Assembly: GCA_002389285.1 (NCBI GenBank)
Contig: DGOF01000041.1
Span: forward strand, 22,194 to 86,193
Reading direction: 5' to 3'
From: Patescibacteria group bacterium UBA4473
GTDB taxonomy: Bacteria > Patescibacteriota > Gracilibacteria > UBA4473
DNA: 64,000 nt
Both the position numbers and the translations under genes were made by a program. Below the pieces are notes generated by a model. That model ran no database searches. It was not told where the DNA came from and saw nothing but the letters and a program-made list of their open reading frames with translations. Of the stretch, positions 3,500-25,620 are shown one piece after another (position 1 is the first letter of the stretch; each line of letters begins with the position of its first letter).

Positions 3500-3534
3500 A
3501 CACAAAGCCCTTTTTCCCTACAATCTTCGCGACT

Positions 3535-5340: not shown

Positions 5341-5350
5341 TCAGTCTTTT

Positions 5351-5746
5351 TTAGTTTCCTCTAAATCGCCACCACCATTTTTTCCATACCGGAACACCAA
5401 TCGCTTCTACCGGAGCCGGGCGAAGACGCTGATTTGTATTGGGAATAATATCTAGTTTCTCTTCAATGAAAACCATCACCCGTTCGCCTGGTTTTTTACG
5501 TCCCATCTGAATCTTCGCTTCTTTGTCTACGCGCTGAGGCGTCAGTAAATATTCTGCCTCACGCTTCTTAAGATTAATACGATCTTCAATGGCCTCATTC
5601 TGATCAACAATCGCATCTAACTCATTCTGAATCTGCTGATTTTCATAGAGCGCATTTACAAGCGAATACAAAAGCCAAAACAACACCACAAAAATAGTGA
5701 CCAACAAAACCACATTTTTGGAAGAGTGAGATGAATCGTTTCGCAT
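5351..5746 (-). CDS. FtsB/DivIC-like septum-formation initiator (single TM plus coiled coil)
   Basis: The internal ATG at 5746 avoids overlap with pth. Has one TM (VVLLVTIFVVLFWLLYSLV), a heptad-like QNELDAIVDQNEAIEDRINLKK stretch, and a YLLTPQRVDKEAKIQMG tail. Confidence 0.5.
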   Translation of the reverse strand: MRNDSSHSSKNVVLLVTIFVVLFWLLYSLVNALYENQQIQNELDAIVDQNEAIEDRINLKKREAEYLLTPQRVDKEAKIQMGRKKPGERVMVFIEEKLDIIPNTNQRLRPAPVEAIGVPVWKKWWWRFRGN

Positions 5747-5797
5747 AAAAAAGAAGAAAGCTTGGGAAAAATACCAAATCTCACTACAATTGGAAAG

Positions 5798-6337
5798 ATG
5801 AAACTTCTTGTAGGATTGGGCAATTATCCGGATGAATACACTGAGAATCGACATAATGTCGGATTTTTGTTTTTAGATTTTTTAGTAAAAAAATTCGATC
5901 TCGAACCTTTTAAGTCTGAAAAGAAATTTTTTGGACAGGTAAGCACGGGAATTATTCAAAACGAAAAAGTCATTCTTATCAAGCCAGAAACCTATATGAA
6001 CCTTTCTGGGAAAGCCGTTGCAGCCATCACTAATTTTTACAAACTCTCGCTCGAAGACATGGTCTTGTTTTATGATGATATTGATCTGGATTTTGGAATT
6101 ATACGATTACGAGAAAAAGGACGATCAGGCGGTCATAAAGGCGTTCAATCCTTAATTGAAAACCTCGGGAGTCAAGATATCATCCGCATAAAATTCGGTA
6201 TTGCAAACGAAGATCGAGAACGCATTCCTACCGAGAAATTTGTCCTTCAAAACTTTCGTACAACAGAAAAAGAAGCCCTCCCAAAACTCTTCGCAGACGC
6301 CTCTGAAAAACTACTGGCCCATCTCGGTGAATGCTAA
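5798..6337 (+). CDS. pth: Peptidyl-tRNA hydrolase
   Basis: MKLLVGLGNYPDEYTENRHNVGF N-terminus, LIKPETYMNLSG, and GGHKGVQS. Confidence 0.9.
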   Translation: MKLLVGLGNYPDEYTENRHNVGFLFLDFLVKKFDLEPFKSEKKFFGQVSTGIIQNEKVILIKPETYMNLSGKAVAAITNFYKLSLEDMVLFYDDIDLDFGIIRLREKGRSGGHKGVQSLIENLGSQDIIRIKFGIANEDRERIPTEKFVLQNFRTTEKEALPKLFADASEKLLAHLGEC

Positions 6338-6870
6338 CCAACTACCGCTCCGTCTACAAATCATGGGTCTTTTCCCAGCAGAACGAGAAACATCATCCTG
6401 TGGGTCGTATTGTAGATTTTGTAATCAATCCCGATAACGGACACTTTGAAGCGATTTGGATTGAAAGCCAACACGGCCTTCGCCTTCTCGCGCCCCAAGA
6501 CATTCTTCGGTGGGACGAAAGTGAGCTTATTATTCATGCCGAAAGAGACCTCGCCAACCCCAAAGGATTCCCCCGACTCAAACCGATTCTTGCCCGAGAA
6601 GTACCGCTCCTGGGTGCCAAAGTTTTTTCTGGAGAAAAGTTTATAGGCCGTGTCAAAGATTTTGCTTTTGATACGATTTCTCCCAAACTTTTAAGCCTTC
6701 TCGTGGGACCCCGATGGTGGTTTTTGGGAACCAAACAGGTCATCCCACGGAAACGTATCCAAAAAATAAAATCCCAAGGCATTTGGATTTCTGAAAACGT
6801 CATCCCCATTTCAAAGAAAAAAGAAACCCCTATCCCCCTCGAAAACCCTATCCCAAAGGTTGATAGTTAA
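6331..6870 (+). CDS. Tandem PRC-barrel-like domain protein
   Basis: Two segments resemble PRC-barrel strands: PVGRIVDFVINPDNGHFEAIWIE and LLGAKVFSGEKFIGRVKDFAFDT. Overlaps the pth stop by 7 nt. Confidence 0.4.
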   Translation: MLTNYRSVYKSWVFSQQNEKHHPVGRIVDFVINPDNGHFEAIWIESQHGLRLLAPQDILRWDESELIIHAERDLANPKGFPRLKPILAREVPLLGAKVFSGEKFIGRVKDFAFDTISPKLLSLLVGPRWWFLGTKQVIPRKRIQKIKSQGIWISENVIPISKKKETPIPLENPIPKVDS

Positions 6871-6895
6871 AATAAACAATTTATTATCCTTCTAC

Positions 6896-7813
6896 ATGAT
6901 TTCATTCAATCACTTCCTCCGAGAAAAAGGTGTCTCTAATGAGCTTCGATCCCTGCTCTATCATATTTCTCGATCGGTGAAATATATTAACTTTTCACTA
7001 CGAGCTGGAAATACGGGGAAAAATCAAAGTCAAAATGCCTCCGGAGAAGATCAGCTCAAGCTCGATGTCATGGCCGATAGTATTATCATGGATGAATTGA
7101 AAAAATCAGAACTCGCCGCACTGGTTATTAGTGAAGAACAAGACAAAGCACTCAACTTCCCCGCTCCACGCGGAACCTTCAGCGTGAGCTATGACCCACT
7201 TGATGGCAGCTCTCTCGTCGATGCCAATCTCGCTATCGGCTCTATTTTTGGAATCTGGGAAGGAGACCAATTAATGGGCACCACCGGCCGCAAAAAAATG
7301 ATCGCTTCTTGTTACGCCGTCTACGGACCGCGCGTTATTTTTGTTATTGCCGTAAAAGGAAAAGGAGCGCATCAATTTGAACTCAATGATGTTGGGGAAT
7401 TCATTCTGGTCGAAGAAACCCTTCACATCGAACCCGATAGCAAATATTTTTCTCCGGGAAATCTCCGTGCCACCGCCGGCAACGAAAAATATCTTGCCCT
7501 CGTCCAAAGCTGGATCGCAGAAAAACGAACCCTTCGATACTCAGGCGGAATGGTGCCGGACATTCATCATATTTTATCCAAATCAGAAGGTATTTTTAGT
7601 TATCCTCGAGACCAAAAACATGAACACGGAAAATTGCGATTACTCTTTGAATGCGCCCCTTTTTCTCTCGTCGCCGAAGAAGCGGGTGGCACCAGTCTCG
7701 ACCAAGAAGGAACCCCTGTTTTGGACATAGAAATAACCGATCCGCATCAACGAACACCCATCTTTATCGGCTCAAAAAACGATGTCGAAAAGTCCATTGC
7801 GACGCTGCAATAA
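6896..7813 (+). CDS. fbp: Fructose-1,6-bisphosphatase, class I
   Basis: GEDQLKLDVMAD, SEEQD, YDPLDGSS, YAVYGPR and LRYSGGMVPD motifs. Confidence 0.85.
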   Translation: MISFNHFLREKGVSNELRSLLYHISRSVKYINFSLRAGNTGKNQSQNASGEDQLKLDVMADSIIMDELKKSELAALVISEEQDKALNFPAPRGTFSVSYDPLDGSSLVDANLAIGSIFGIWEGDQLMGTTGRKKMIASCYAVYGPRVIFVIAVKGKGAHQFELNDVGEFILVEETLHIEPDSKYFSPGNLRATAGNEKYLALVQSWIAEKRTLRYSGGMVPDIHHILSKSEGIFSYPRDQKHEHGKLRLLFECAPFSLVAEEAGGTSLDQEGTPVLDIEITDPHQRTPIFIGSKNDVEKSIATLQ

Positions 7814-7814
7814 A

Positions 7815-8735
7815 ATGAATCTCTCCACCGCCATCGATCGGTACCTCAAAAACCTTCGTAACATCAAAAATGCGTCGCCCTACACCCTGCGCAATTATTC
7901 AAAAAGCCTTAATTTACTCGTAGAATCTCTGGGGGAAGAGGCGGACATCCAAGACATTACGATCGATACGATTGATCAGATCCGCGATCTTATTTTTGAA
8001 AAAAAGACCCGCGATGGATCTCCGATTGCTCGCAGTACACAAAATATCTACTTAATCCCAATTCGCGCTTTTTTGAAATTTTGCCTCCAGAGAGATTTAG
8101 CACAAAATATTCTGGCCCCCGAAAAGATAGAACTTCTCAAAACAGATCCCCGTGATGTTTCAGGGCTTCGCGACGAAGAACTCGAAAGACTCCGAAGCCT
8201 TGAAGGCAACAAAAATAGAACCATAGAAACCCGCGACCGAGCTATGATTGAAATGCTTTTTTCAACCGGAATCCGTATATCAGAGCTCTGTAATCTCAAC
8301 TGTGAACAGGTCAATCTCAAGACAAAAGAATTCACGGTCTTGGGAAAAGGAAAAAAAATTCGAACGGTTTTTATGACCGATCGTGCCGCGAATCTTCTGA
8401 AAGAATATTTGGCACAGCGAGATGATAATTTTCAGCCGCTTTTTATAAATGCCCGCACGAGAAAAGATGAGTTTGAAACCAAAGGCGAATCCCGCAGGCT
8501 CTCACGAACCAGTGTTGAAATTATGGTCCGAAACAGAGGCCGAAGAGCCGGCATCACAAAACCCGTAACACCACACGTCTTACGCCACACGTTTGCCACC
8601 ACCTTACTTCGAAATGGCGCTGACCTGCGATCAGTACAAGAGTTGCTCGGCCATGCTAGTATTTCTACAACTCAGATTTACACGCACGTTGCGAATGCGG
8701 ATCTAAAGCGGGTGCACCAACAGTATCTGGACTAA
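7815..8735 (+). CDS. xerC: Tyrosine site-specific recombinase, XerC/XerD family
   Basis: R..H.LRH..A...L..G.D motif: HVLRHTFATTLLRNGADLRSVQELLGHASISTTQIYTHV, including the catalytic Tyr. N-terminal SAM-like domain. Confidence 0.85.
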   Translation: MNLSTAIDRYLKNLRNIKNASPYTLRNYSKSLNLLVESLGEEADIQDITIDTIDQIRDLIFEKKTRDGSPIARSTQNIYLIPIRAFLKFCLQRDLAQNILAPEKIELLKTDPRDVSGLRDEELERLRSLEGNKNRTIETRDRAMIEMLFSTGIRISELCNLNCEQVNLKTKEFTVLGKGKKIRTVFMTDRAANLLKEYLAQRDDNFQPLFINARTRKDEFETKGESRRLSRTSVEIMVRNRGRRAGITKPVTPHVLRHTFATTLLRNGADLRSVQELLGHASISTTQIYTHVANADLKRVHQQYLD

Positions 8736-10035
8736 TTCCGCAGTGCTGACGCTCCGGCAGCACTTCTTCTACGCGTGTAATTTTGGCCCCCAATGCGGTA
8801 AGATTTTTTGCAAAATGCTCATACCCTCGATCGATATAATCAATATTCGTCACCTTGGTCTGACCTTCTGCAATAAGTCCGGCTAATACCATGGCGGCAC
8901 CGGCTCGCAAATCCCAACTCTGAACTTCCGTTCCGACAAAATTCGTTTTTCCAAAAACTTTTGCCTGATGGACATTCAGAAATTCAACTTTCGCCCCCAT
9001 CTTTTCCAGTTCACTCAGGTACGTAAATCGTCCTTCATAGAGCGTTTCAAAAATCATGGATTCGCCTTCACACTGAGTCAATAAAAGACCAAACAAACTC
9101 TGTAAATCACTCGAAAAACCCGGAAAAATTGCCGTCTGTATTTTTCGAATCGCTTTCAGGTTCGGACTTTTACGAACATGGAGCGTATTCGGTTTCATAT
9201 CAAATTGTGCGCCCGTTTGCTTCAACACTCCATAAAAAGACAACAATTCATTGTGATCTACATTGTGAATTTTTATGTCGCCTTCTGTCAGTAACGCCGC
9301 AATAGAATACGTTCCCACAAGAATCCCATCGGGAGGAATCGTAAACCCTCCTCCCTGCAATTTCTTACTGCCTGATATTTTCAAATGATGCGTTCCAATA
9401 CCCTGAATTTCAGCGCCCATCGTCTGTAGCATTTTAAGTGTGGCACAAACATGCGGCTCCGCCGCCGTAAAGAAAAGCTCTGCCGCATTACCACTCCCCG
9501 CAATAAAAAGACTTAAATTTTCGGTCCCCGTAACCGAAGCTTCCGTCAAAAGCAGTCGATCCGTTGCAAAATCTTTTTGATCATATTTCAAATGAATAGT
9601 CTCTCCCTCTGAAACTATTTCAGCTCCAAGTGTTTCCATTCCTTTGGTATGAATATCACAACTTCGAGCCCCAATAATATCTCCGCCCGGTGCAAACAGC
9701 TCACATTCTCCAAACCGAGCCAACAACGGCCCCAGCATGAGAATAGAAGCTCTAAATTTTTTCACATCTTCACAGCTTTTTAATTTTGAAGGATCAATGT
9801 TTTTGGCCTGAATTTTGACCATTTTTTGCTCTTTATCCCAACTTGTTTGAGCCCCTAAATAATCAAAAATTCCTAACAAAACACCAATGTCAGAAATTTC
9901 TGGAACATTGTGAAAGGTGCATGTTTCTTCCGTCAAAAGCGCCGCACACATCATCGGCAAAGCCGCATTTTTTGCGCCAGGAATCCTAATCTCCCCCGAG
10001 AGCCGAGCACCACCTTCAACCAAAAAGTAATCCAT
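8665..10035 (-). CDS. murA: UDP-N-acetylglucosamine 1-carboxyvinyltransferase
   Basis: MDYFLVEGGARLSGEIRIPGAKNAALPMM N-terminus and two-lobed EPSP-synthase-like repeats. Carries a roughly 35-aa C-terminal extension encoded antisense to the xerC 3' end. Confidence 0.9.
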   Translation of the reverse strand: MDYFLVEGGARLSGEIRIPGAKNAALPMMCAALLTEETCTFHNVPEISDIGVLLGIFDYLGAQTSWDKEQKMVKIQAKNIDPSKLKSCEDVKKFRASILMLGPLLARFGECELFAPGGDIIGARSCDIHTKGMETLGAEIVSEGETIHLKYDQKDFATDRLLLTEASVTGTENLSLFIAGSGNAAELFFTAAEPHVCATLKMLQTMGAEIQGIGTHHLKISGSKKLQGGGFTIPPDGILVGTYSIAALLTEGDIKIHNVDHNELLSFYGVLKQTGAQFDMKPNTLHVRKSPNLKAIRKIQTAIFPGFSSDLQSLFGLLLTQCEGESMIFETLYEGRFTYLSELEKMGAKVEFLNVHQAKVFGKTNFVGTEVQSWDLRAGAAMVLAGLIAEGQTKVTNIDYIDRGYEHFAKNLTALGAKITRVEEVLPERQHCGISPDTVGAPALDPHSQRACKSEL

Positions 10036-10151
10036 AGTAGCGCCATTATGCGGATTCCGCGATTTCAATCAAATCTTTTTAAGAAGTCCAAAATCGCACG
10101 AACTCCTAGTTGCATTTTTCACCAATTTTGGTAAAAAATAAAGTTACCCTC

Positions 10152-13100
10152 ATGCAAAAAGTCGAACGCCTTTTCGCCCAACTTTTAGAAAAAATAAAGG
10201 TCTATCAGCCTCATTTTAATCCAACGCGATTAGAAGAGGCTTTCGCCTTTGCCAAACAAGCCCATCAAGGCCAAACACGTGGATCAGGAGGTCCCTACAT
10301 AGGCCATCCGCTGGCAGTGGCCAGCATTCTTACGGAGTATCAAGCCGAAGAAGACACTCTCATTGCGGCTATCCTTCATGATACCGTCGAGGACATTGAA
10401 CATATTTCGTACCAAACAATTGAAACAAAGTTTGGCACGGTCATTGCCAAACTCGTAGAAGGCGTTACCAAAATCAGCGCCGGCCAAATCAAAGCCTCTC
10501 TTGTCAAAGAGTCCTCCCTCGACAAACCCCATGACGTCGAAACCATTCGGAAAATTTTTCTCGAATCCGACCGAGATATTCGCGTCATTTTGATCAAACT
10601 CGCCGATCGGCTGCACAATATGAAAACGCTCAGTGGGATTAACGACCTAGTCAAACAACGCGTAAAAGCCGAAGAAACCCTCAACATATTTGTCCCCGTC
10701 GCGATGCGGATCGGCATTTGGAAGATGAAAAATGACCTCGAAAAAGAAGTCCTTCATTACCTCTATCCAGAGCAAGAACAAGAAATCCAAACCTTTCTCC
10801 AAAATATAAAATCGAGTCAAAGCCAACTCATTCATCGCCTCATTCATAAAATAGAACACGCGGATGACAAGCAGAAAATTCAAAAAATTCATATCTACAA
10901 GCGCAGTCTTTTTACACTCAAGAAACTCCTTGATCAAGAAAAAAACCTCCATCCGGGGCGAACGTTTAATCTTTTTATCTGTCTCAAAAACGAAGAAACG
11001 TGTTACGCAACACTAAAACTCATCCATCGTCTTTTTCCAACCCGAACTCTGGAAGAAGACTTCATTTCTAATCCTCGCGAAAATCACTACAAAGCCTATC
11101 ACATCAATATCGTCACCCAAGACGGACATAAAGTACAACTCCGCCTGGGAACCCACGACATGTATCTTCGTAGTATGTACGGTATTACCCATGCCGTTTT
11201 TCAAAAAAAAGAAAGTCACTCCAAGGCCAAGTTCCTGATTCCACTCGAACTCCTCAGTAAAAAAACCAAGCATTCTCCCGAGGAATTTCTCGAGGCGGCC
11301 AAGAGTGATCTCCTTCAAGAAAAAATAGAAATTCACTGTGATAATAAACATTATTTTATTCCCGAAGGCGCCACCGCCCTCGATGCCATTTTTCATATCT
11401 ATGGCGCCAAGGCCCTGCATACCACGGAGATTTTTCTCAATAATAAATCCATTCCGTTTAATCAGGAAATCACACACATTGGTGTTTTAAGAGCCGAATT
11501 CAGTCCTCGTCTCACGGTAGAATTCGACTGGTTTTACAAAATAAACACCGCCAACGCCCGCATCGCCATCCAGGAAGCCCTCCAAAAATGGAACTACGAA
11601 AAGAAAGTTGAAGTGGGCCACCAGATTTTACAAAAAGAATTTGATGCACACGAAAAAGGAAAAATAGAACTTCATTTCAAGAAAAAGAATCTTGATGACT
11701 ATTTTGAAGTTAAAAATATCAATGATCTATCCGCCCTCGTAGGAGAAGGACGCCTTAAGCCGTATGATATTTTTCTCAAATGCTTCCCCGAAACGGAAAA
11801 AAATACACTGCAAAAAATAATCGACCACGTTGATAATTTTTTTGGGAAACTCCTCTTCCGGAGAAAAAAAGAACATATTCGATTTCAGCTCAAAAGTATT
11901 GCAGATAAAAAAATAAATATTTTAACGAGGATTCACAAACTTGCCGAAAAATTTGAAATTCTTATATCGAAAATCACATATCTCAAAAAAACGGAAACTC
12001 AGACCTGTTCGATTCAAATCCATTGCTCTTACGAACAAAAAAAAGACTTTCATAAGTTCCAATCGATGCTGGAACAACAAAGCGGAGTGATCAACGTAAA
12101 ACCATTGATGTCGATAAGAAAAAGAGCCTTCTTTCTTCTTTGGCTCATAACAACAATCACCCTTTGGCTGACCTTTCCTCTTTTATTTCACACGATAAAT
12201 CATCTATTTGAGCTCTCTCTTTATGGATCTTTTTTTGCCTGCCTGATGCCTATTCTCCTGGCAAATTATCTTTTATTCAAATTTACGAAAAATCATTTCC
12301 TACAAATAAGAAATACTACGTGGATATTCTTAGCCAATATCATTGTTAATTTCATAGGTATGGGGGCGCTGATGCTGTATTCCACCTACAAAAACATACC
12401 TTTAAATATCTCTTTTATATTTGTAATATTTGCCTGCTTAAATGCAATGTATCTCTACGAATTTTTAATACAAAAAACACACAATCAACCAAGGATCCCT
12501 CAGGTTAATTCTCCCAAAAAAATATCATTCGGAGCTTTTTCAGGAGCTGCTATTGCTATCATTGTTTTAGGAATCAATCCCATTATCATTCGACATTTAG
12601 TACATGATCTAAATATTCCCGTCTCAACAACTATTATATCTCGATTTTTTCTTGGAGGAGGGATTCTTTGGATTATTCACTTTTTCACTCAAAATAAAAA
12701 TCACCCCAAAACCAAATTCACCTATGACTATCTCTTTGGACTCATGGTCTTGGGAATTCTTGGAAATTTCATTCTCTATCACTGGGGCATGAAATATACC
12801 ACCGCCACCAATGCGAAGCTCATGGAAAATTTCACATCCATCATCGTGCTCCTTTCTGCAGGGCTCTTTATTCCTGATTACATTCGAAGAACCAGGGGAA
12901 GCAGTAAAACCGAATGGATCAAAACTTTTATCATTGTCCTTCTGGGATCAGCCGGGATTTCTTTCATTCTCAATTATTTTCCAAAAGGATCGGTTGAAAA
13001 TTATGAAATAAAATTATTCGGAGATTCAATAGAAATTATAGCCACCTTTTTCTTTGCTATGTTTTTCCTCGCACACAACCTTTATGTAAAACAAAATCGA

Positions 13101-13460
13101 CAAATTTCGAGCATAGAAATTATTGCTAAAATGTTTCTTTGTGCCGGTGCATTAGCCCTGCCCTTTATTCTTTGGGAAGGCGTCGGAACCGCATCTCAAT
13201 ATTCATGGAAAGCTCTTTCTTTACTTGGATTTATTGGTATTTTTTCCAGTGGCTTAACCTATGTTTTATGGAGTTTCGTAGCACGAACCCTCGATGTGGT
13301 AACCACTTCACTTCTCTTTAATTTTGCCGTTATCATAACGATCATTGGAGAACATTTATTTTTCGATCTTTCCCTGAATATTCTTCTTTTAATAGGTGCT
13401 ACTTTAATGATATACACAGCCGTAGCAGCAGATCTCATAAATAAAAAACGTCTCTCCTAA
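10152..13460 (+). CDS. RelA/SpoT homologue (HD hydrolase, degenerate synthetase, TGS, ACT) fused to a polytopic membrane region ending in an EamA/DMT transporter domain
   Basis: HD domain: GGPYIGHPLAVASIL...AAILHDTVED...KLADRLHNM. Synthetase-like region with substituted motifs: FNLFICL, KVQLRLGTHDM. TGS-like: FIPEGATALDAIFHIYG. ACT-like block, then about 14 predicted TM helices from about nt 12120, the last 10 with an EamA signature (GLTYVLWSFVARTLDVVTTSLLFNF). Confidence 0.8.
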   Translation: MQKVERLFAQLLEKIKVYQPHFNPTRLEEAFAFAKQAHQGQTRGSGGPYIGHPLAVASILTEYQAEEDTLIAAILHDTVEDIEHISYQTIETKFGTVIAKLVEGVTKISAGQIKASLVKESSLDKPHDVETIRKIFLESDRDIRVILIKLADRLHNMKTLSGINDLVKQRVKAEETLNIFVPVAMRIGIWKMKNDLEKEVLHYLYPEQEQEIQTFLQNIKSSQSQLIHRLIHKIEHADDKQKIQKIHIYKRSLFTLKKLLDQEKNLHPGRTFNLFICLKNEETCYATLKLIHRLFPTRTLEEDFISNPRENHYKAYHINIVTQDGHKVQLRLGTHDMYLRSMYGITHAVFQKKESHSKAKFLIPLELLSKKTKHSPEEFLEAAKSDLLQEKIEIHCDNKHYFIPEGATALDAIFHIYGAKALHTTEIFLNNKSIPFNQEITHIGVLRAEFSPRLTVEFDWFYKINTANARIAIQEALQKWNYEKKVEVGHQILQKEFDAHEKGKIELHFKKKNLDDYFEVKNINDLSALVGEGRLKPYDIFLKCFPETEKNTLQKIIDHVDNFFGKLLFRRKKEHIRFQLKSIADKKINILTRIHKLAEKFEILISKITYLKKTETQTCSIQIHCSYEQKKDFHKFQSMLEQQSGVINVKPLMSIRKRAFFLLWLITTITLWLTFPLLFHTINHLFELSLYGSFFACLMPILLANYLLFKFTKNHFLQIRNTTWIFLANIIVNFIGMGALMLYSTYKNIPLNISFIFVIFACLNAMYLYEFLIQKTHNQPRIPQVNSPKKISFGAFSGAAIAIIVLGINPIIIRHLVHDLNIPVSTTIISRFFLGGGILWIIHFFTQNKNHPKTKFTYDYLFGLMVLGILGNFILYHWGMKYTTATNAKLMENFTSIIVLLSAGLFIPDYIRRTRGSSKTEWIKTFIIVLLGSAGISFILNYFPKGSVENYEIKLFGDSIEIIATFFFAMFFLAHNLYVKQNRQISSIEIIAKMFLCAGALALPFILWEGVGTASQYSWKALSLLGFIGIFSSGLTYVLWSFVARTLDVVTTSLLFNFAVIITIIGEHLFFDLSLNILLLIGATLMIYTAVAADLINKKRLS

Positions 13461-13597
13461 GACATTTCTTGCTACAAATTATGGCTCTGATTACAATGAA
13501 CTCACATATTTTCTAACCTCAAAAACATGATCCTCTCTCTCGACGGATGTGGCTGCGGCAGCGATGATAGCTGCGACACAGAAGAATAATTAAAAAA

Positions 13598-13620
13598 GGC
13601 GATTCATTCGCCTTTTTTTT
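13598..13620. terminator. Bidirectional intrinsic terminator between the RSH fusion gene and alaS
   Basis: AAAAAA-GGCGA-ttcat-TCGCC-TTTTTTTT. The A-tract on one side and T-tract on the other serve both convergent genes. Confidence 0.6.
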
Positions 13621-15400
13621 AACCTACAATCGCTTTGATCCGGCGAACCCCTCTTCCACAACTCTCTTGTTTTTTAATCTTAAAACTTCCTAATTGTCCA
13701 AGATGCTCTACATGCGGTCCCCCGCATATTTCTTTTGAGTGCGTTCCCATCGTATAGACTTTGACGGTGTCACCATATTTATGCTCAAAAAATCCCAAAG
13801 CACCAGAATGCTTCGCTTCTTCCACACTCATCTCTTGTAAACTTACCTCTGCATTGGAAGCAATCGCTTCGTTTACATAATCCTCTACGAATTGTAATTG
13901 CTCTGGCGTGAGTTTTTCTTCATGCGAAAAATCAAACCGCAGACGATCGGCTGTAATATTCGAGCCCTTCTGCTGTACATGATCCCCCAAAATTTTACGC
14001 AATGCTGCATGCATCAGGTGAGTCGCCGTATGAAGCTTCACCGTTTCGTCTGATCGATCGGCAAGTCCTCCTGAGAACTTCTCTTCCGCTCCCGATCGGG
14101 AAAGCGCCTGATGGGCTTTATAGGCTTTGTGAAAACCATCTTCATCTACTTCCATATTTTTTTCAGCAGCGAGTTCCACCGTCATCTCAATCGGAAAACC
14201 ATAGGTTTCATAGAGATAAAAGGCTTTATCCCCCGGCATTTTTCCTTCTAATTTTTCAGAAAGTTTTTTAAATTCACGCTCTCCAGACTCAAGCGTCTTT
14301 CGAAACTGAGTTTCTTCGCGCGCCAATTCTTCCAAAATAAAATCCTGCTTTTCTTGGATATTTTTATAAGCCGAACTTAATTTATCAAAACAAGGCGCCG
14401 CTATCTGTATGCACAGATCCTGATCAATCCCTAATTTCCGTCCATGCCGAATCGCTCGACGAATAATACGCCGCAAAATATATCCCTGATCGACATTCGA
14501 CGGTGTCACACCGTCAGAAAGCAATACCACTGATGTTCGCACATGATCCGCGATAACCCGTGAAGAATGATGGACATCCGACTCGGCAATAGGATCCTCT
14601 GCTATTTCTGGATGACCGGACAAATCTGCAATCTTCTGCAAGATATCAGTAAATGCATCCGTCTGATAAACAGACTTTAAGCCATTGATGACCGCGACGG
14701 TCCGTTCGAGGCCCATGCCCGTGTCTATGTTTTTACTCGGTAAGGGCGTCAAAACGCCACTCGCATCTTTATTAAACTGCATAAACACATCATTCCAAAT
14801 CTCCACCCAACGCTCATCCTCCCAAGATTCCTGGAAGCTTTCGGGAGCCGGTTCTTCCCCCGTCCAGTAAAACATTTCTGTATCCGGACCACACGGACCG
14901 GTATCGCCTTTAGCCCACCAGTTTTCAGAGGCCGGAAGAAACGCTATCCGTGACTTGGGCATGCCCACTTCCTGCCAACGATCAGCAGAATACTCATCGC
15001 GAGGCGCATTTTCATCCCCTTCAAAAACAGAGACCGCAAGCTTTTCAAGCGGCAGTTCTAAAACCTTTACGAGAAACTCAAACGACCATTCGATCTGCTC
15101 TTGTTTAAAATAATCTCCCAACGACCAATTTCCCAACATCTCAAAAAACGTCAGATGCGTCGCATCCCCTACTTCATCAATATCAATCGTCCGAATACAT
15201 TTCTGCACGTCTGCCAGACGATTTCCCTGCGGATGAGGTTCTCCCATGAGATACGGCACCAGTGGGTGCATCCCTGAATTATGGAAAAGCGCCGTCGGAT
15301 CATTATCCGGCAAAACCCCCGCACTGGGGATAATCACATGATTTTTAGATTCCCAAAAATCAAACCACTTTTTTCGAAGATCGTCTGTTGTATATTGCAT
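13619..15400 (-). CDS. alaS: Alanine--tRNA ligase, short form (catalytic plus editing domains, no C-Ala domain)
   Basis: Class II AlaRS N-terminus: FHNSGMHPLVPYL, KCIRT, FFEMLGNWS. Editing-domain motifs HTATHLMHAAL and CGGPHV. Ends at GVRRIKAIVG after 593 aa. Confidence 0.9.
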   Translation of the reverse strand: MQYTTDDLRKKWFDFWESKNHVIIPSAGVLPDNDPTALFHNSGMHPLVPYLMGEPHPQGNRLADVQKCIRTIDIDEVGDATHLTFFEMLGNWSLGDYFKQEQIEWSFEFLVKVLELPLEKLAVSVFEGDENAPRDEYSADRWQEVGMPKSRIAFLPASENWWAKGDTGPCGPDTEMFYWTGEEPAPESFQESWEDERWVEIWNDVFMQFNKDASGVLTPLPSKNIDTGMGLERTVAVINGLKSVYQTDAFTDILQKIADLSGHPEIAEDPIAESDVHHSSRVIADHVRTSVVLLSDGVTPSNVDQGYILRRIIRRAIRHGRKLGIDQDLCIQIAAPCFDKLSSAYKNIQEKQDFILEELAREETQFRKTLESGEREFKKLSEKLEGKMPGDKAFYLYETYGFPIEMTVELAAEKNMEVDEDGFHKAYKAHQALSRSGAEEKFSGGLADRSDETVKLHTATHLMHAALRKILGDHVQQKGSNITADRLRFDFSHEEKLTPEQLQFVEDYVNEAIASNAEVSLQEMSVEEAKHSGALGFFEHKYGDTVKVYTMGTHSKEICGGPHVEHLGQLGSFKIKKQESCGRGVRRIKAIVG

Positions 15401-15424
15401 TATCTTATGAGATCAGGCTTTCTA

Positions 15425-15874
15425 CTATTTATAAAAAACACGAACCGATCGCTGCGCACCCTCTCCCACCGAATCCGTAGACAAATCGTTAAAGTTATTG
15501 GCCACCCAAACGTGAACCAATCGACGAGTATAGGGGCTCATCGGGTGAAGCTTGATTTCTGATAAATTCTGTTCCCGCATCAGATCAATGATTTTTTGAG
15601 CTTTTTCATAAACACGATCTTCCTGTTGCCCACGATAATTATCCACATCCACCGTAACAAATATTTTTTCCTCCTGTTGTTGCCACAAAATAACCTTCAA
15701 AATCGTCTGAATCGCACTGAGAAGCGATCCATTTTTTCCGATCAAATGAGAGGGTTCCGGCGTTTCCACACTGGCTCGGTAATGACCATTCTCTTCGGCA
15801 ATCATGACGCAGTCATATTCTGCGCCGAATTTATCAAGCAAAAGCTTGAGGGCTTTTTGTATAATCGTTTCCAT
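15425..15874 (-). CDS. jag: Jag/KhpB-like RNA-binding protein (KH plus R3H domains)
   Basis: KH-like LIGKNGSLLSAIQ and R3H-like LHPMSPYTRRLVHVWV...SVGEGAQRSV. Confidence 0.7.
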   Translation of the reverse strand: METIIQKALKLLLDKFGAEYDCVMIAEENGHYRASVETPEPSHLIGKNGSLLSAIQTILKVILWQQQEEKIFVTVDVDNYRGQQEDRVYEKAQKIIDLMREQNLSEIKLHPMSPYTRRLVHVWVANNFNDLSTDSVGEGAQRSVRVFYK

Positions 15875-15967
15875 GGCAAAAAGGGGAAAGAAGTTCTCTC
15901 ACAGATTAATCATTTGCAAAAAAAGGTCAACGCCATTACACTTAAAAATGTTCTTAATCTTTTCCTC

Positions 15968-16726
15968 ATGATGGAACTTATCACCGCCTTCCCCATTCTT
16001 GTCTTCCTTATCATTGTGCTCGTAGTTATTATTCGGCAGGTCAATGAATACCAGCGAGGCGTGACCTTCACGTTTGGAAAATATACCTCCACCAAAATGC
16101 CCGGATGGCGCATTGTCCTTCCGATCTTTCAGTCAATGACAAAAATCGACATGCGTACCAAAGCCGTCGATGTCCCCGACCAGGAAGCCATAACCAAGGA
16201 CAATATTCCGGTCAAAATTAATGCAGTCATTTATTACCGTGTTACCAACGCCGAAAATGCAATCCTTAAAGTAGAAAGCTTCTTTTGGGCCATGAGCCAA
16301 ATGGCACAGACCACGATGAGAAACGCCGTGGGAGAAGTGACGCTCGATGAACTTTTGCAAAACCGCGATGATATTTCAAACCGTATTCAGATTGTCATCG
16401 ACAAAGCGTCTGATCCTTGGGGAATCACTGTCGAATCAGTGGAACTCAAAGACGTCATTATCCCAGAAAATCTCAAACGAACCATCTCCAAAGAAGCCGA
16501 AGCCGAACGAGAAAAACGAGCCGTCATCATCAAAGCCGAAGGAGATCGAATCTCTGCCGATAATCTCGCTGCAGCCGCCAAGATACTCGACCAAACCCCC
16601 GGCGCCATGCACCTACGAACGCTTCAAACCGTCAACGACCTCAGTTCCGATCAGTCCAACACGACGGTCTGGATGCTCCCGATGGAAATGCTCGCGGCGC
16701 TCAAAGGGTTTGAAAAGAAAAACTAG
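15968..16726 (+). CDS. SPFH/band-7 (stomatin/prohibitin-like) membrane protein
   Basis: The ATG at 15968 gives an N-terminal TM and then VNEYQRGVTFTFGKY. The SPFH core and EAEREKRAVIIKAEG coiled coil follow. The longer ORF-track start would overlap jag. Confidence 0.85.
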   Translation: MMELITAFPILVFLIIVLVVIIRQVNEYQRGVTFTFGKYTSTKMPGWRIVLPIFQSMTKIDMRTKAVDVPDQEAITKDNIPVKINAVIYYRVTNAENAILKVESFFWAMSQMAQTTMRNAVGEVTLDELLQNRDDISNRIQIVIDKASDPWGITVESVELKDVIIPENLKRTISKEAEAEREKRAVIIKAEGDRISADNLAAAAKILDQTPGAMHLRTLQTVNDLSSDQSNTTVWMLPMEMLAALKGFEKKN

Positions 16727-17187
16727 AGACTCCAAATCGACTGAATCTTTCTCTTTTTTTCATACGGACGTTGGACCCGTGTCAGATTAAGCTCAATTTC
16801 GGAAGATCCTTCAGTATTGAATTCTAAAGTTCCCGTGAAGAAAATAAAACGCTCTAAAATCCCTTGCCCAGAGCGAATATCGACAATTTCTTCACGCTCA
16901 ACCTCAATCACTTTTCGAAAAAGAAACCCGGTCTTCCGATAGATTCTATTTTCGGTAATAAAATAATGCGTAAAAAGAAAATTCAGCGTAAAGCGTAGCA
17001 CCGTCAGACTTCCAGCAATCGCAATCGGAACCCAAAAGAAAGCATTATCTTTAAAAAACCAACCCAACCACCCAAAAAGCGCCCCACAAACCACCACCTG
17101 CCACACATAAAACACCGGCCCAATCCCAAACCTGAAGAGTATTTTTTCCCCGGGGTGAATGAATTTGGTGAGGTTTTCGAGAGTCAT
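16723..17187 (-). CDS. Membrane protein with bacterial PH (YdbS/YdbT-like) domain
   Basis: Two N-terminal TM helices, then ITENRIYRKTGFLFRKVIEVEREEIVDI...GTLEF, typical of bPH_2 proteins. Confidence 0.5.
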   Translation of the reverse strand: MTLENLTKFIHPGEKILFRFGIGPVFYVWQVVVCGALFGWLGWFFKDNAFFWVPIAIAGSLTVLRFTLNFLFTHYFITENRIYRKTGFLFRKVIEVEREEIVDIRSGQGILERFIFFTGTLEFNTEGSSEIELNLTRVQRPYEKKRKIQSIWSL

Positions 17188-17202
17188 AGCGCTATTATAA
17201 CA

Positions 17203-18960
17203 CTACTCCTCAATAACTCGAATATTCTGCTCTGCCACTTCCTTTTCTGGCATAGCCGAAGGGGATCCGAGCATTAAGTCCTGAGCAGACTGATTTTTCG
17301 GAAAAGCAATGACTTCACGGATATTCGGCTCATCGGCGAAGAGCATGACCACACGGTCCAGTCCCATCGCACAGCCCCCATGCGGCGGACATCCGTAGGA
17401 AAAAGCCTTGAGCATGTGTCCAAATTTTTTCTGAATCTCTTCTTCGTTTAATCCCAATCCTTGAAAGATCTTATGCTGCAGTTTTTGATCGTGGATTCGG
17501 ATCGATCCGCCGCCTAATTCCACCCCGTTCATGACCACATCATAGGCATAGGCTCGTACGGCCATAGGATCGGTATCCAAGAGAGGAATGTCTTCTACTT
17601 TCGGATGGGTAAATGGATGATGCGCCGCCTGCACAGAGCCATCTTCTTTAGCCTCATACATCGGGAAATCATACACCCACAGATAACAAAATTCTTTCTG
17701 GTTTTTTAATTCAAATTTATCTCCCAAGGCACTTCGTACCGCGCCCAAAGGTTCTACTGCCGTCAGAAAATCTCCGGCGCCAAAGAAAATCAAATCGCCG
17801 TCTTCAGAACTTGTTTTAGTTTTCAAAGCTTCAAGAAATTCAGGTGTTGAGTTTTTGGCTACCGGACCGGATTCATCCCCCACACGGTACCAAGCAAGAC
17901 CGCCCGCTCCGTTCTCACGTGCCAAATCCGTTAACGCATCAATATCTTTTCGAGAAAGTTCGCCGTGAGCTTTCGGAGCCGGCAAAGCAAAGACACGATC
18001 TGATTTTTCAAAAATACCAAATCCAGAAGTTTTCGCTTCTTCTGATACATCTACAAATTCAAGATCAAATCGAAGATCTGGTTTATCCGAACCATATTTT
18101 TCCATGGCTTCCTGCCAAGTGATACGTTTAAATTTTTCGTCGACCAAGAATTTTTTCCACTCGCGGTCTTGTCCCAATTTTTCCATTAATTCATGAAAAC
18201 ACATCTCAACGTTATCCATCACATCGTCTTGTTCGACAAAACTCATCTCCACTTCAAACTGCGTAAACTCAGGCTGACGATCCCCCCGCAAATCTTCATC
18301 ACGGAAGCATCGCGGCACCTGAAAGTATTTATCAATGCCTCCGACCATAAGCAACTGTTTAAGCTGTTGTGGCGACTGCGGCAACACGTAAAAACTTCCC
18401 GCATGCAGTCGACTGGGCACCAGATATTCACGGGATCCTTCCGGCGTACCTTTCACTAAGATGGGTGTTTCAATATCCCAAAAGTCTCGTCCATCAAAGT
18501 AATCACGAACAATTTTAACAATATTATGTCGCAGCTGGAGATTTTTCTGCATGCGTTCGCGTCGCAGATCAAGATACCGATACTCTAATCGCAAGTCTTC
18601 ACGCACATCATCTTTATCCAGTTCAAACGGCGGCGTCTGCGCTTCGCTCAAAACTTTAATCTCATCGACAAAAAGTTCGATTTCGCCGGTATCCATTTTA
18701 TCATTCGTCATACCTTCTCGTCGCGCTTGAACTTTTCCCGTGACAGAAATTACCCATTCTGGACGAATCTTTTCACCGCCTCCATGAGCAGACTCTGAAA
18801 CTTCTGGATCAAACACAATCTGTGTCAGCCCGTACCGATCTCGCAGATCCACAAAAATAATCCCTCCATGATCGCGTCGGGTATCCACCCAACCAGAAAG
18901 AGTTACCGTTTGATCAATATCTTTTGCTGTAAGTTGGCCACAAGTGTGAGTTCGAAACAT
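17203..18960 (-). CDS. aspS: Aspartate--tRNA ligase
   Basis: OB-fold N-terminus (GWVDTRRDHGGIIFVDLRD); class II motifs FRDEDLRGDRQPEFTQFEVEMSF and GGGSIRIH; PPHGGCAMGLDR. Confidence 0.95.
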   Translation of the reverse strand: MFRTHTCGQLTAKDIDQTVTLSGWVDTRRDHGGIIFVDLRDRYGLTQIVFDPEVSESAHGGGEKIRPEWVISVTGKVQARREGMTNDKMDTGEIELFVDEIKVLSEAQTPPFELDKDDVREDLRLEYRYLDLRRERMQKNLQLRHNIVKIVRDYFDGRDFWDIETPILVKGTPEGSREYLVPSRLHAGSFYVLPQSPQQLKQLLMVGGIDKYFQVPRCFRDEDLRGDRQPEFTQFEVEMSFVEQDDVMDNVEMCFHELMEKLGQDREWKKFLVDEKFKRITWQEAMEKYGSDKPDLRFDLEFVDVSEEAKTSGFGIFEKSDRVFALPAPKAHGELSRKDIDALTDLARENGAGGLAWYRVGDESGPVAKNSTPEFLEALKTKTSSEDGDLIFFGAGDFLTAVEPLGAVRSALGDKFELKNQKEFCYLWVYDFPMYEAKEDGSVQAAHHPFTHPKVEDIPLLDTDPMAVRAYAYDVVMNGVELGGGSIRIHDQKLQHKIFQGLGLNEEEIQKKFGHMLKAFSYGCPPHGGCAMGLDRVVMLFADEPNIREVIAFPKNQSAQDLMLGSPSAMPEKEVAEQNIRVIEE

Positions 18961-19015
18961 AAGAAAAAGGCTGAATAAGCCTAGGCATTATTCTTATTTA
19001 AGCCGAAAAATCAAA

Positions 19016-19747
19016 CTACCGCGCAGCTTTTTCTATTTCATGATCAATTTTTCGATCATTTTCAGAGAATCCCAAAAGCAAAAACGCCAGAACAGAACCA
19101 AAGATCAAACTCAAAAGATTAAATCCAAAAAGAATACTGTAGGTTCCCAAAAGATCATAATGACCTGCTCCCAAGAGCAATCCCAAGAAGCTCAAGAACG
19201 GAATCAAACTCACGGCAATCGCAATTCCTACCAAGTTCAAACTACTTAAAGGCCGAAGCCAAGAATAAATCGCCGCAAATCCACTAATAAAAGCCGCTAC
19301 CAAAAAGAAGAAAAACGCATCAGGCGAAGCGAATTTTTCCGGGAAAAAAGTCAGATCGACGGTCTTGTCCCAGAGTAAAAGCATTTTGGAAAAAAAGGCC
19401 GTCGTAACCACAACTCCCAAAATGCCTCCTGCTAAACTTTTAATCGCATAGGTGATAAGCTTAGAGTGCATCAACAATAATCCGGCCGAAAGGGCCAAAA
19501 CAGGATTGAGCAAAGGCGCCAAAACCATCGCCCCGATCAAGACCGCAATATCTTGAATCAACAGACCGACCGCCGCCATGAGTCCGGAAAGAAGCGACAT
19601 AACAAAGAATCGAACTTCGAGCCGAGAGCCCTGAATAAGCTGTTCCACCGCTTGGCTCGCTTCATCCGTTTTCCGCAGTGTTCCCAGATAATCTTTCATC
19701 CAGGATTCTGCTCGATGCACAGGCGCTAAAACAATATTCACATTCAT
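19016..19747 (-). CDS. Polytopic membrane protein, DUF389-like
   Basis: Six or more hydrophobic helices. IGAMVLAPLLNPVLA resembles the DUF389 signature. Start chosen at the ATG at 19747. Confidence 0.45.
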   Translation of the reverse strand: MNVNIVLAPVHRAESWMKDYLGTLRKTDEASQAVEQLIQGSRLEVRFFVMSLLSGLMAAVGLLIQDIAVLIGAMVLAPLLNPVLALSAGLLLMHSKLITYAIKSLAGGILGVVVTTAFFSKMLLLWDKTVDLTFFPEKFASPDAFFFFLVAAFISGFAAIYSWLRPLSSLNLVGIAIAVSLIPFLSFLGLLLGAGHYDLLGTYSILFGFNLLSLIFGSVLAFLLLGFSENDRKIDHEIEKAAR

Positions 19748-19844
19748 CTCCTCATTATAGCATAAATAAGCGACAAATGACAAGAATGAAATTGACTTAT
19801 TCCCTTGGTTTTTTATCGTAAAGGATAGTAATTATAAATTATAT

Positions 19845-20945: not shown

Positions 20946-20970
20946 GGGGATCACGAATCCTGCTTCCAAA

Positions 20971-25610: not shown

Positions 25611-25620
25611 TGTGTTAAAT

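Follow-up and report, generated by a model that had tools for sequence, protein, structure and literature searches.

The window (the whole 64-kb stretch of DNA that was analysed) derives from a marine candidate-phyla-radiation (CPR) bacterium; the proteins nearest to the LepA encoded in it are labelled Candidatus Gracilibacteria and Peribacteria. On the forward strand it carries a gene at 10152..13460 that encodes a long RelA/SpoT homologue (RSH) fused to a membrane region ending in an EamA/DMT-type permease domain. The gene consists of 1102 codons without an internal stop, from ATG 10152 to TAA 13458-13460, in agreement with the single uninterrupted 1102-aa ORF of the original prediction. A TTG at 10110 would give the longest open frame, but the N-termini of homologues align to ATG 10152, which supports the latter as the start. 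The 3' half of the gene has a G+C content of 0.375, compared with about 0.41-0.45. The features assigned to the locus were as follows, with residue numbers referring to the fusion protein.

10152..13460, + strand: RSH-4TM-EamA fusion, complete gene including the stop codon (ORF; 15 contigs with an identical protein; full-length homologues at 36-42% identity)
10239..10721, + strand: predicted HD (p)ppGpp-hydrolase domain, aa 30-190 (Pfam HD_4, E=1.5e-40; full catalytic set)
10869..11216, + strand: putative pseudo-synthetase domain, aa ~240-355 (weak Pfam RelA_SpoT match, alignment to B. subtilis Rel, motif census, model)
11313..11507, + strand: diverged TGS-like beta-grasp domain, aa ~388-452 (TIGR00691 alignment; beta-grasp-like strands 391-450 in the AlphaFold model)
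11523..11855, + strand: helical (AH/RIS) and zinc-finger-domain-equivalent region, aa ~458-568 (Pfam RelA_AH_RIS; model helices 458-568)
11871..12107, + strand: ACT/RRM-like domain, aa 574-652 (beta-alpha-beta-beta-alpha-beta unit in the AlphaFold model; sub-threshold ACT_4)
12114..12485, + strand: four-helix TM module, aa 655-778 (hydropathy and model helices; no Pfam family)
12486..12518, + strand: short Lys/Arg-rich connector, predicted cytoplasmic, aa 779-789 (hydropathy loop; non-helical in the model)
12519..13454, + strand: complete 10-helix EamA/DMT permease domain, two 5-helix repeats, aa 790-1101 (Pfam EamA, weak TIGR00950, Foldseek)
13592..13618, no strand assigned: palindromic, terminator-like hairpin with A-run and T-run flanks (terminator scan; 11-pair stem)

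Fifteen contigs, assembled independently from four or more ENA, Logan and JGI samples, encode the identical 1102-aa protein. The fusion is kept by a syntenic orthologue (P0002, 42% identity), which lies at the same position beside the divergent murA-like gene, and by more than 30 genomes at species level; across dozens of genomes it persists at identities of 22-42%. The stop or frameshift near nt 12100 that had been raised as a possible artefact was not found in any of these, and HMMs and fold comparison agreed with the identification of RSH and EamA parts in the protein. In a profile search against 1.84 billion representatives, the best 150 matches were all family members. These proteins fell into three architectures: Rel+4TM (~790 aa; class A), Rel+4TM+EamA (~1100 aa; class B, to which the protein in the window belongs) and Rel+EamA (~920 aa; class C). 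Our family census comprised 159 sequences, 22 from class A, 40 from class B and 97 from class C. Two paralogous classes retain the fusion to EamA, which spans over 130 clusters at the 50% identity level. Family members in named genomes were nearly all from Candidatus Peribacteria/Peregrinibacteria; judging from sequence, these CPR lineages are the main source of three related membrane-embedded RSH architectures, and the fusion is one of them. A rough neighbour-joining tree, which did not include proteobacterial SpoT, placed the synthetase-intact Rel+4TM proteins beside ordinary Rel. The original prediction did not recognise the architecture as a described type. Our literature search found no paper describing or characterising an RSH-EamA fusion, but the fusion is common in metagenomes and hence not singular.

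The catalytic set of the HD domain was complete (R43, H52, H76, D77, E80, D81, D152, R153, H155 and N156, together with T159), and the H...HD...ED...D...N motif of the long RSH superfamily was present. Retention of each catalytic residue across the 159 family sequences was 94% or higher, and for most of them it reached 98-100%. Superposition of the N-terminal domain model on S. aureus Rel gave a TM score of 0.86 (Foldseek). The Pfam match and the residue inventory agree with the intact-looking hydrolase proposed earlier: the catalytic residues of a Mn2+-dependent (p)ppGpp 3'-pyrophosphohydrolase are all in place, and the domain is predicted to be such an enzyme. Assignment to the small alarmone hydrolases (SAH/Mesh1; a single HD domain of about 180-200 aa) was ruled out by the length of 1102 aa and the multidomain organisation; the structural match to Mesh1 was limited to the HD part and ranked 39 (Foldseek).

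As in other long RSH enzymes, a synthetase fold follows the HD domain. Pfam RelA_SpoT matched aa 276-353 with 30.7 bits (cut-off 27), the N-terminal half reached a TM score of 0.86 to Rel, and the region was modelled by AlphaFold as a beta-sheet with helices. The catalytic residues expected of a bifunctional Rel were missing. In alignments with B. subtilis Rel (6yxa) and with intact Rel sequences, numbered as in RelSeq, R241 is replaced by Y249, K243 by R251, D264 by R270/T271, R269 by F275 and E323 by Q329 (K327 in the register of the original prediction), and the RxKD motif reads L300-E-E302-D303. These alignments bear out the two motif substitutions noticed previously, FNLFICL in place of D..A.R.I and KVQLRLGTHDM in place of EVQIRT..MH. 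The domain keeps its fold and the G-loop residues D303, N311, Y313, H317 and T334. Across the family, R241, D264 and E323 were kept in 12, 18 and 14 of the 22 Rel+4TM sequences, in 3, 21 and 4 of the 40 Rel+4TM+EamA sequences, and in none of the 97 Rel+EamA sequences. None of the 27 class B sequences checked individually had the full catalytic set; three class B relatives (P0006, P0007 and P0121) retain D264 and E323. With D264 still present in roughly every second class B sequence, synthetase residues have been lost by degrees in this class and not uniformly. Sequence and model together indicate that the synthetase domain of the fusion protein is a presumptive scaffold only.

The regulatory region of a long RSH could be followed in part across the middle of the protein. 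TIGR00691 aligned aa 30-590 to profile positions 1-557 (whole-protein score 322, cut-off 499) and Pfam RelA_AH_RIS matched aa 466-581 (E=4.5e-07). Pfam TGS gave no match in the fusion protein, and Pfam ACT_4 aligned over profile positions 6-79 of 80 without reaching its threshold (13.3 bits, E=0.14). At sequence level the TGS- and ACT-like blocks of the original prediction were supported only in part, by the TIGR00691 and RelA_AH_RIS alignments; at fold level they gain support from the model and the alignment to SpoT (7qpr). The TGS histidine that reads the tRNA CCA end (B. subtilis H420), a hallmark of bifunctional Rel, is Y417 in the fusion protein. In a census of this column, 13 of the 22 class A sequences had the histidine, as did none of the 40 in class B and none of the 97 in class C. 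The TGS, helical and ACT/RRM domains thus appear to survive in diverged form, without the tRNA-sensing histidine. The last ACT/RRM strand continues straight into TM1 in the model, and in each of the three classes 19-22 aa separate the ACT helix from TM1 (interquartile spread about 2 aa).

Hydropathy analysis identified 14 segments within aa 660-1087, and the AlphaFold model (whole-protein pLDDT 90.3, pTM 0.79) contained four long helices (655-686, 690-715, 723-747 and 753-778) followed by ten more between residues 790 and 1101. Together with the Pfam and Foldseek results, this reproduces the predicted order of about four TM helices and then a 10-TM EamA-type domain. The four-helix module (aa 655-778) had no match in Pfam. 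It is common to the fusion protein and the ~790-aa Rel+4TM proteins and has conserved residues at N705, R720 (in the TM2-TM3 loop) and N733. The hydropathy loop at 774-794 carries four K/R residues but lacks D/E, which fits the positive-inside rule; by that rule both ends of the EamA domain would be cytoplasmic, as in DMT transporters. Pfam EamA matched the isolated domain in two stretches (73.7 bits), in keeping with the two-repeat, ten-TM organisation of DMT proteins, and TIGR00950 matched weakly (32.7 bits, cut-off 230). The fold was that of YddG (5i20), LicB (7paf), the triose-phosphate/phosphate translocator (TPT, 5y78) and SLC35 transporters; Foldseek gave a probability of 1.00 and TM scores of 0.70-0.79 to 5y78, 5i20 and 7paf. 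The same ten helices in two 5-helix repeats are found in these proteins, including the SLC35 nucleotide-sugar and ATP/ADP carriers, with target-normalised TM scores of 0.63-0.79 and identities of 13-19%; unlike the fusion protein, the transporters compared have no N-terminal enzyme of about 650 aa. The EamA domain had no sequence-level match in the PDB and, given the low identity to its structural matches, its substrate is not transferable by homology.

Conserved polar residues lie within the membrane part of the EamA domain (T883, N887, N893, N1057 and the invariant E1067), and E1067 and N733 were invariant in 40/40 class B sequences. EamA identity within class B was 31-33%, equal to the conservation of the pseudo-synthetase and TGS domains. 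We argue from this conservation, the invariant residues and the complete DMT fold that the permease is probably more than an anchor.

Rel is ribosome-associated, senses deacylated tRNA through its TGS histidine and synthesises (p)ppGpp. The bifunctional Rel proteins (B. subtilis 6yxa, S. aureus 7oiw, T. thermophilus 6s2t and RelSeq 1vj7) have the domain order from HD to ACT that the fusion protein also appears to have, and gave the best PDB sequence match (2.4e-55), with TM scores of 0.8-0.86 over the catalytic N-terminal half. The fusion protein differs from them in having its synthetase residues and TGS histidine replaced and in being predicted to be membrane-embedded. The closest relatives without EamA are the Rel+4TM proteins of Patescibacteria/Peregrinibacteria (such as P0010, P0012 and P0019; ~790 aa), on which our literature search found no paper. 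They share the C-terminal four-helix module and a [YF]-F-P-x-[IL]-R loop motif, but most of them have full synthetase motifs, the TGS histidine and TGS and ACT_4 domains that Pfam detects, and their genes lie in a different conserved neighbourhood (sortase-...-rel-ychF-aroD).

The top structural match over the full length was SpoT[Hs] (7qpr; about 720-740 columns, about 20% identity, Foldseek). This long RSH of Acinetobacter baumannii and other Moraxellaceae only hydrolyses: its synthetase domain is dead, its C-terminal domains exert control, and it arose by subfunctionalisation after paralogue formation (PMC9974481). The fusion protein resembles it in combining a putatively active HD domain, an incompetent synthetase as scaffold and apparent TGS, helical, ZFD and ACT/RRM regulatory domains; SpoT[Hs] is soluble, whereas the fusion protein continues from ACT/RRM into 14 TM helices. 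With an intact HD domain, an inactive synthetase site and retained C-terminal domains, the protein can be placed, by sequence and model, among the hydrolase-only long RSH enzymes, a functional class rather than a clade. Taxonomy and low identity suggest that synthetase loss in the CPR lineage was separate from the Moraxellaceae event.

Membrane-anchored messenger hydrolases (GdpP for c-di-AMP, 7TM-HD-GYP for c-di-GMP) and transporter-based sensing (LysP-CadC, DctA-DcuS) provide analogies: a membrane input controls messenger degradation, or a permease doubles as sensor. The families are unrelated, sensor and transporter are usually separate polypeptides, and to our knowledge none of these systems involves (p)ppGpp or an RSH enzyme.

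Collectively, HMMs, alignments and the structural model agree with the proposal that the gene encodes a membrane-integral long RSH with an apparently intact hydrolase site, a degenerate synthetase and an EamA end. We hypothesize, with somewhat better than even confidence, that it is an integral-membrane, hydrolase-only long RSH whose state is set by the fused permease acting as a sensor. The ACT/RRM domain is joined to the 4 + 10 TM helices without a flexible linker, from which we argue for a rigid connection; allosteric coupling between permease and hydrolase is something we infer only from topology, linker length and co-conservation. The enzyme would degrade (p)ppGpp at the membrane. Its hydrolase would be switched on or off by the state of the permease (substrate occupancy or transport cycle) rather than by ribosomes and deacylated tRNA. 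The ACT/RRM, helical and TGS domains would pass this state on to the N-terminal half with the catalytic site, much as the C-terminal domains do in SpoT and Rel. The host lineage is generally regarded as depending on imported metabolites; in such an organism, a transceptor of this kind would make the easing of the stringent response depend on nutrient arrival.

The strongest competitor, which we consider unlikely though deserving of attention, is that the EamA domain transports independently of the RSH half and that fusion serves only as a tether or ensures equal expression (a 'Rosetta-stone' link), with no allostery. DMT proteins function on their own. Stand-alone EamA relatives at 35-41% identity occur in Thiothrix and in an unclassified gammaproteobacterial MAG (L042, L045 and L048), with no RSH match upstream of them, and the Rel+4TM proteins show that a bare membrane anchor is viable. 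Retention of the fusion in both paralogous classes and the short, length-conserved spacing from ACT to TM1 speak against this view. Moreover, the presence of EamA coincides with loss of the synthetase residues and of the tRNA-sensing histidine, a pattern that looks like replacement of an input rather than simple tethering.

Reversed wiring appears less probable again: the RSH half would be an alarmone-binding module that gates the permease, and hydrolysis would reset the switch. Nucleotide second messengers such as c-di-AMP commonly gate transporters through cytoplasmic domains, and the strongly conserved G-loop residues (D303, N311, Y313 and H317) could preserve a nucleotide-binding site. Against this, the near-invariant HD catalytic set argues for selection on turnover and not on binding alone, and we know of no long RSH that serves as an effector domain.

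We give little credence to a scavenging role, the most extreme of the readings considered, in which the permease would import alarmones or phosphorylated nucleotides from a host or neighbours and the HD domain would hydrolyse them for guanine-nucleotide salvage. Members of the CPR typically live as episymbionts and have limited biosynthesis, a (p)ppGpp synthetase could not be found within the 64-kb window, and the structural matches include nucleotide and nucleotide-sugar carriers (SLC35B1 and the CMP-sialic-acid transporter). However, TPT, YddG and LicB outrank these carriers, with identity to all of them at 13-19%, no transporter known to us imports (p)ppGpp, and a simple salvage enzyme would not need regulatory domains.

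Slighter still is the chance that the protein remains a bifunctional Rel with a non-canonical synthetase catalytic set. The retained fold, several nucleotide-contacting residues and the D264/E323 pair in the three class B relatives would fit such an enzyme, but the Asp that binds Mg2+, the catalytic Glu and the two basic residues that bind the ATP phosphates are missing together, and substitution of either the Asp or the Glu abolishes synthesis by Rel. The SpoT[Hs] precedent likewise argues against synthetase activity (PMC9974481). An assembly mis-join or sequencing frameshift fusing two genes, for which only the lower G+C of the 3' half could be cited, is refuted by the 15 identical contigs and the family-wide conservation of the fusion, the low G+C and T-richness being those of membrane-protein codons.

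Long RSH enzymes are central switches of bacterial starvation physiology, and all characterised members known to us are soluble proteins that respond to ribosomes, tRNA or soluble partners. A hydrolase-only RSH built into the membrane and welded to a permease would, if confirmed, represent a new class of stringent-response input (transport or membrane state) and a first handle on growth regulation in ultra-small, host-dependent CPR bacteria. As a 'Rosetta stone', the fusion may also connect alarmone metabolism with an otherwise orphan DMT transporter. Being one member of a large family for which no published description was found, it suggests a new wiring of starvation signalling to the membrane. 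More tentatively, and with less than even confidence, we propose that the long RSH enzymes of Peregrinibacteria/Peribacteria left the ribosome for the membrane: an ancestral Rel with both activities would have gained a four-helix anchor, and paralogues would then have fused to DMT permeases, lost synthesis and tRNA sensing, and become nutrient transceptors in which the transport cycle switches (p)ppGpp degradation.

Downstream of the gene, the hairpin at 13592..13618 sits between the convergent fusion gene and alaS; by its match to the consensus only, it looks like a terminator shared by the two.

The fusion gene (window 10152..13460, + strand) was read through as one open frame of 1102 codons with a TAA stop, as the original prediction had stated. 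An in-frame TTG at 10110 is the alternative start, and the N-termini of homologues match the ATG at 10152 instead. The identical 1102-aa product was called on 15 independently assembled contigs of up to 117 kb, from ENA, Logan and two JGI samples, the JGI samples probably being North Sea seawater. A mis-join or a split near the fusion point had been raised as a concern; none was found, since these contigs and the relatives keep the fusion. The nearest relative, P0002, is 42% identical over the full length, and its gene, just like the one in the window, has a murA-like (EPSP-synthase-family) gene as its divergently transcribed neighbour; other full-length relatives showed 22-41% identity. The same product on 15 independent contigs and the synteny kept in P0002 make an assembly or sequencing artefact exceedingly improbable. 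Synteny with the window was present in P0002 and was not found at distant family loci. The 3' half of the gene has a lower G+C content and is T-rich, as expected of codons for a membrane protein. No candidate passed a scan for sigma-70-like promoters upstream of the gene, and no promoter is claimed.

Pfam domains in the 1102-aa fusion protein
aa 30-190: HD_4 (E=1.5e-40)
aa 276-353: RelA_SpoT, marginal, 30.7 bits (cut-off 27)
aa 466-581: RelA_AH_RIS
two stretches: EamA

The NCBIfam RelA/SpoT model TIGR00691 aligned aa 30-590 with profile positions 1-557 and scored 322 bits against a cut-off of 499, as expected for a divergent member. By hydropathy, the stretch from aa 660 to 1087 holds 14 hydrophobic segments. 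The C-terminal 313 residues submitted alone matched EamA with 73.7 bits in two repeats, and the four-helix region alone matched no Pfam family. Lys and Arg are frequent in the loop at 774-794, and KKR closes the tail; a predicted topology in which the N-terminus, the C-terminus and this loop are cytoplasmic agrees with both features.

An AlphaFold2 model was built on a 61-sequence family alignment (mean pLDDT 90.3, pTM 0.79, no residue below 50). It comprises an HD helical bundle followed by a synthetase-type beta-sheet (243-334), a beta-grasp-like unit (391-450), a helical region (458-568) and a beta-alpha-beta-beta-alpha-beta unit (574-652). Four long helices (655-778) begin straight after this last unit, and an 11-residue connector leads to ten further helices (790-1101). 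The arrangement of about four transmembrane (TM) helices ahead of a 10-TM EamA domain was recovered by hydropathy and the model, with Pfam supporting the EamA part. The proposed TGS- and ACT-like blocks appear as fold units in the model; they were not borne out by Pfam, where the TGS-like stretch alone had no match and the ACT-like stretch alone reached ACT_4 at E=0.14 only. Foldseek searches against the PDB placed full-length A. baumannii SpoT (7qpr) first, ahead of B. subtilis Rel and ribosome-bound RelA, and the catalytic half matched S. aureus Rel with a TM score of 0.86.

Catalytic residues were assigned by alignment with B. subtilis Rel (PDB 6yxa) and by a MAFFT census of 159 family members and 7 ordinary Rel proteins; both agreed. 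The full HD set (R43, H52, H76, D77, E80, D81, D152, R153, H155, N156 and T159) is present, in line with the intact-looking hydrolase first described, and these residues are retained in at least 94% of the 159 family members, most of them in 98-100%. The synthetase site is changed as follows.

Synthetase residues (RelSeq numbering) and their counterparts in the fusion protein
R241, ATP-phosphate binding: Y249
K243, ATP-phosphate binding: R251
D264, Mg2+ binding: R270/T271
R269: F275
RxKD: L300-E-E302-D303
E323, catalytic: Q329 (K327 in the register of the original prediction)

These substitutions show that FNLFICL and KVQLRLGTHDM had been called correctly as altered synthetase motifs. Fold-defining and G-loop residues (C284-Y285, D303, N311, Y313, H317 and T334) are retained, and on its sequence 'pseudo-synthetase' is the most fitting term for the domain. 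The TGS histidine that reads the tRNA 3'-end (H420 in B. subtilis) is replaced by Y417.

Ten fused proteins supplied the profile for a search of 1.84 billion representatives of clusters at 50% identity. The best 150 matches, down to E=7e-160, were family members without exception, so the family holds at least 150 clusters. Sorting by length and helix counts gave three architectures; the census counts also take in relatives from a separate search.

Architectures of the family and residues retained in the census
Class A, Rel + 4 TM, about 790 aa, 22 sequences: R241 12/22, D264 18/22, E323 14/22, TGS histidine 13/22
Class B (that of the window), Rel + 4 TM + EamA, about 1100 aa, 40 sequences: R241 3/40, D264 21/40, E323 4/40, TGS histidine 0/40
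Class C, Rel + EamA without the 4-TM module, about 920 aa, 97 sequences: R241 0/97, D264 0/97, E323 0/97, TGS histidine 0/97

None of 27 class B sequences checked individually had a complete synthetase catalytic set. In a rough neighbour-joining tree, 13 synthetase-intact class A proteins adjoined ordinary Rel, class C was essentially monophyletic and the window protein fell within the main class B clade. Seven proteins of 765-812 aa (P0141, P0142, P0154, P0202 and others) end after the 4-TM module and nest within the class B clade, not with synthetase-intact class A. Either truncated gene calls or a secondary loss of EamA could account for them.

Scanning one genome per GTDB species with a C-terminal (4TM+EamA) alignment of 5 sequences identified 40 loci; the genome scan with the window protein alone gave no match. 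Most loci (32/40) were titled Candidatus Peribacteria, Peribacteraceae, Peribacterales, Peribacter or Peregrinibacteria, three were titled Gracilibacteria and one only 'bacterium'. One lay on a 'Lloydbacteria' contig whose match statistics equal those of a Peribacteria contig (L035 and L036). The remaining three were gammaproteobacterial (two Thiothrix and one unclassified MAG); there the match was limited to the EamA part, no RelA/SpoT homologue (RSH) match was found upstream, and in one Thiothrix locus (L048) the ORF listing spread the EamA homologue over two overlapping reading frames. The RSH N-terminal half lay directly upstream of the C-terminal match in 31 loci, including a 'Gracilibacteria' MAG in which the frame runs for 1120 codons from stop to stop without interruption. 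The NCBI annotation of one class B protein reads simply 'HD domain-containing protein [Candidatus Peribacteraceae bacterium]'. LepA from the window shares 72-78% identity with proteins named Candidatus Gracilibacteria or Peribacteria, and the genome is accordingly assigned to the Gracilibacteria/Peregrinibacteria branch of the Candidate Phyla Radiation (CPR). A chlamydial or other PVC origin had been considered in view of the V-type ATPase, the lysC-asd-dapB-dapA cluster and the Ser/Thr kinases in the window, and of a report that PVC bacteria lack RSHs (Atkinson 2011); it was rejected on the LepA identities and because Peribacteria/Peregrinibacteria genomes carry the fusion family.

In two Peregrinibacteria/Peribacteria MAGs, class B and class C genes lie 1.7-3 kb apart:
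L039, 4015..7335: class B (about 1100 aa)
L039, about 8990..11755: class C (about 920 aa)
L016, 4102..7380: class B (about 1100 aa)
L016, 10394..13210: class C (about 920 aa)

The two classes are thus coexisting paralogues, and class C was assigned to Peregrinibacteria because it adjoins class B genes in these loci. A possible small alarmone hydrolase occurs in another Peregrinibacteria MAG (L014): an HD-only RSH-like match (9966..10493, - strand) to residues 14-180 of a Rel query, with the class B gene about 2.6 kb upstream of it.

Three class A loci with intact synthetase motifs were fetched:
L050, 10001..12376
L052, 9207..11588
L053, 10001..12325

All three came from assemblies other than those with class B, and among them no class A protein was found in the same genome as a class B protein. 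Their neighbourhood is conserved (sortase, (mnmA), rel, ychF, aroD), and two of the three also have a c-di-AMP cyclase pair, cdaA-ybbR, within a few kb of the class A gene. No (p)ppGpp synthetase was found within the 64-kb window.

In RSH enzymes the C-terminal domains control which catalytic state the N-terminal half adopts, and branched-chain amino acids reportedly bind the Rel ACT domain. In the hydrolase-only A. baumannii SpoT, a compact arrangement of the C-terminal domains primes hydrolysis (PMC9974481). The usual input, ribosome and deacylated tRNA via the TGS histidine, appears to be lost in the fusion protein, and the last regulatory domain is pinned to the permease in its place. Since input and anchorage seem to have changed in this way, we propose permease-controlled hydrolysis: (p)ppGpp would be degraded at the membrane, with the ligand or the transport state of the permease as the controlling signal. 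We hold this complete proposal at slightly better than even confidence. That the protein is hydrolase-only and membrane-integral is, taken alone, highly probable; allosteric coupling between permease and hydrolase is the weaker half.

The leading alternative, that the EamA fusion provides a mere tether or co-expression, is considered unlikely. Mean identity within class B was 31-33% for the EamA halves, on par with the pseudo-synthetase core (30%) and the TGS-like domain (28%), and the 4-TM module (20%) and the ACT-like domain (17%) were both below the EamA halves. Intramembrane polar residues are conserved in class B, namely E1067 (40/40), N733 (40/40), R720 (39/40), N893, N1057, T883 and N887. 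The ACT helix residue F636 lies 19-22 residues from the start of TM1 in all three classes (interquartile spread about 2), so the regulatory C-terminus enters the membrane without a flexible linker. The reverse wiring, in which the alarmone gates the permease, appears more doubtful still. In Foldseek the C-terminal domain matched the triose-phosphate/phosphate translocator (5y78), YddG (5i20), the choline importer LicB (7paf, TM 0.79) and SLC35 nucleotide or nucleotide-sugar carriers, at 13-19% identity to all of these DMT structures, and a PDB sequence search for its substrate gave no match. Import-coupled scavenging of exogenous alarmones or nucleotides is very improbable. Residual synthetase activity is rated marginally lower again. 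A membrane (p)ppGpp hydrolase answering to its permease is the reading that we retain.

Each part of the protein has known counterparts, namely long RSHs, the dead synthetase domain of A. baumannii SpoT[Hs] and DMT permeases. Their combination and the apparent change of input are not described so far. Transmembrane or transporter-fused long RSHs are absent from the RSH classification papers PMC3153485 and PMC7229694. No description of a membrane- or EamA-linked RSH was found in the literature, including that on Peregrinibacteria, Patescibacteria and the CPR, which agrees with the original view that this is not a described type. The fusion did prove to be common, as had been considered, and no paper characterising it was found. 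Robustly real and widespread in one major uncultured lineage, it is surprising for stringent-response specialists and amenable to direct testing.

Elsewhere in the window, neither tRNA genes nor Rfam families were found across the 64 kb, and six large ORFs (350-662 aa; 21025..25673, 43780..45768 and 49177..51825) had no Pfam match at E<=1e-5. GC skew was negative in every 2-kb bin of 1..64000 (-0.08 to -0.28), without a turning point, and AT skew was positive in all but two bins. The alanyl-tRNA synthetase (13619..15400, - strand) has only 593 aa, the same length on all contigs, and consists of the catalytic core and the tRNA_SAD editing-associated domain without the C-terminal domain. Two HATPase_c-only proteins (246 and 225 aa; 26655..28850) flank an OmpR-type response regulator (27410..28093). 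A Fic-domain protein and two eukaryote-type Ser/Thr protein kinases were located at 45798..46676, 51684..52823 and 54045..55061. A V/A-type ATPase cluster occupies 31697..37986 (- strand):
31697..33460, -, A subunit
33842..34849, -, C/AC39 subunit
34853..35410, -, E subunit
35437..35934, -, proteolipid c
35959..37986, -, I subunit

A contiguous lysine/diaminopimelate cluster (56918..63336, - strand; lysC-asd-dapB-dapA included) encodes an aminotransferase class I/II, aspartokinase, aspartate-semialdehyde dehydrogenase, DapB, DapA and an Orn/DAP decarboxylase, and homoserine dehydrogenase lies apart from it at 19845..20945.
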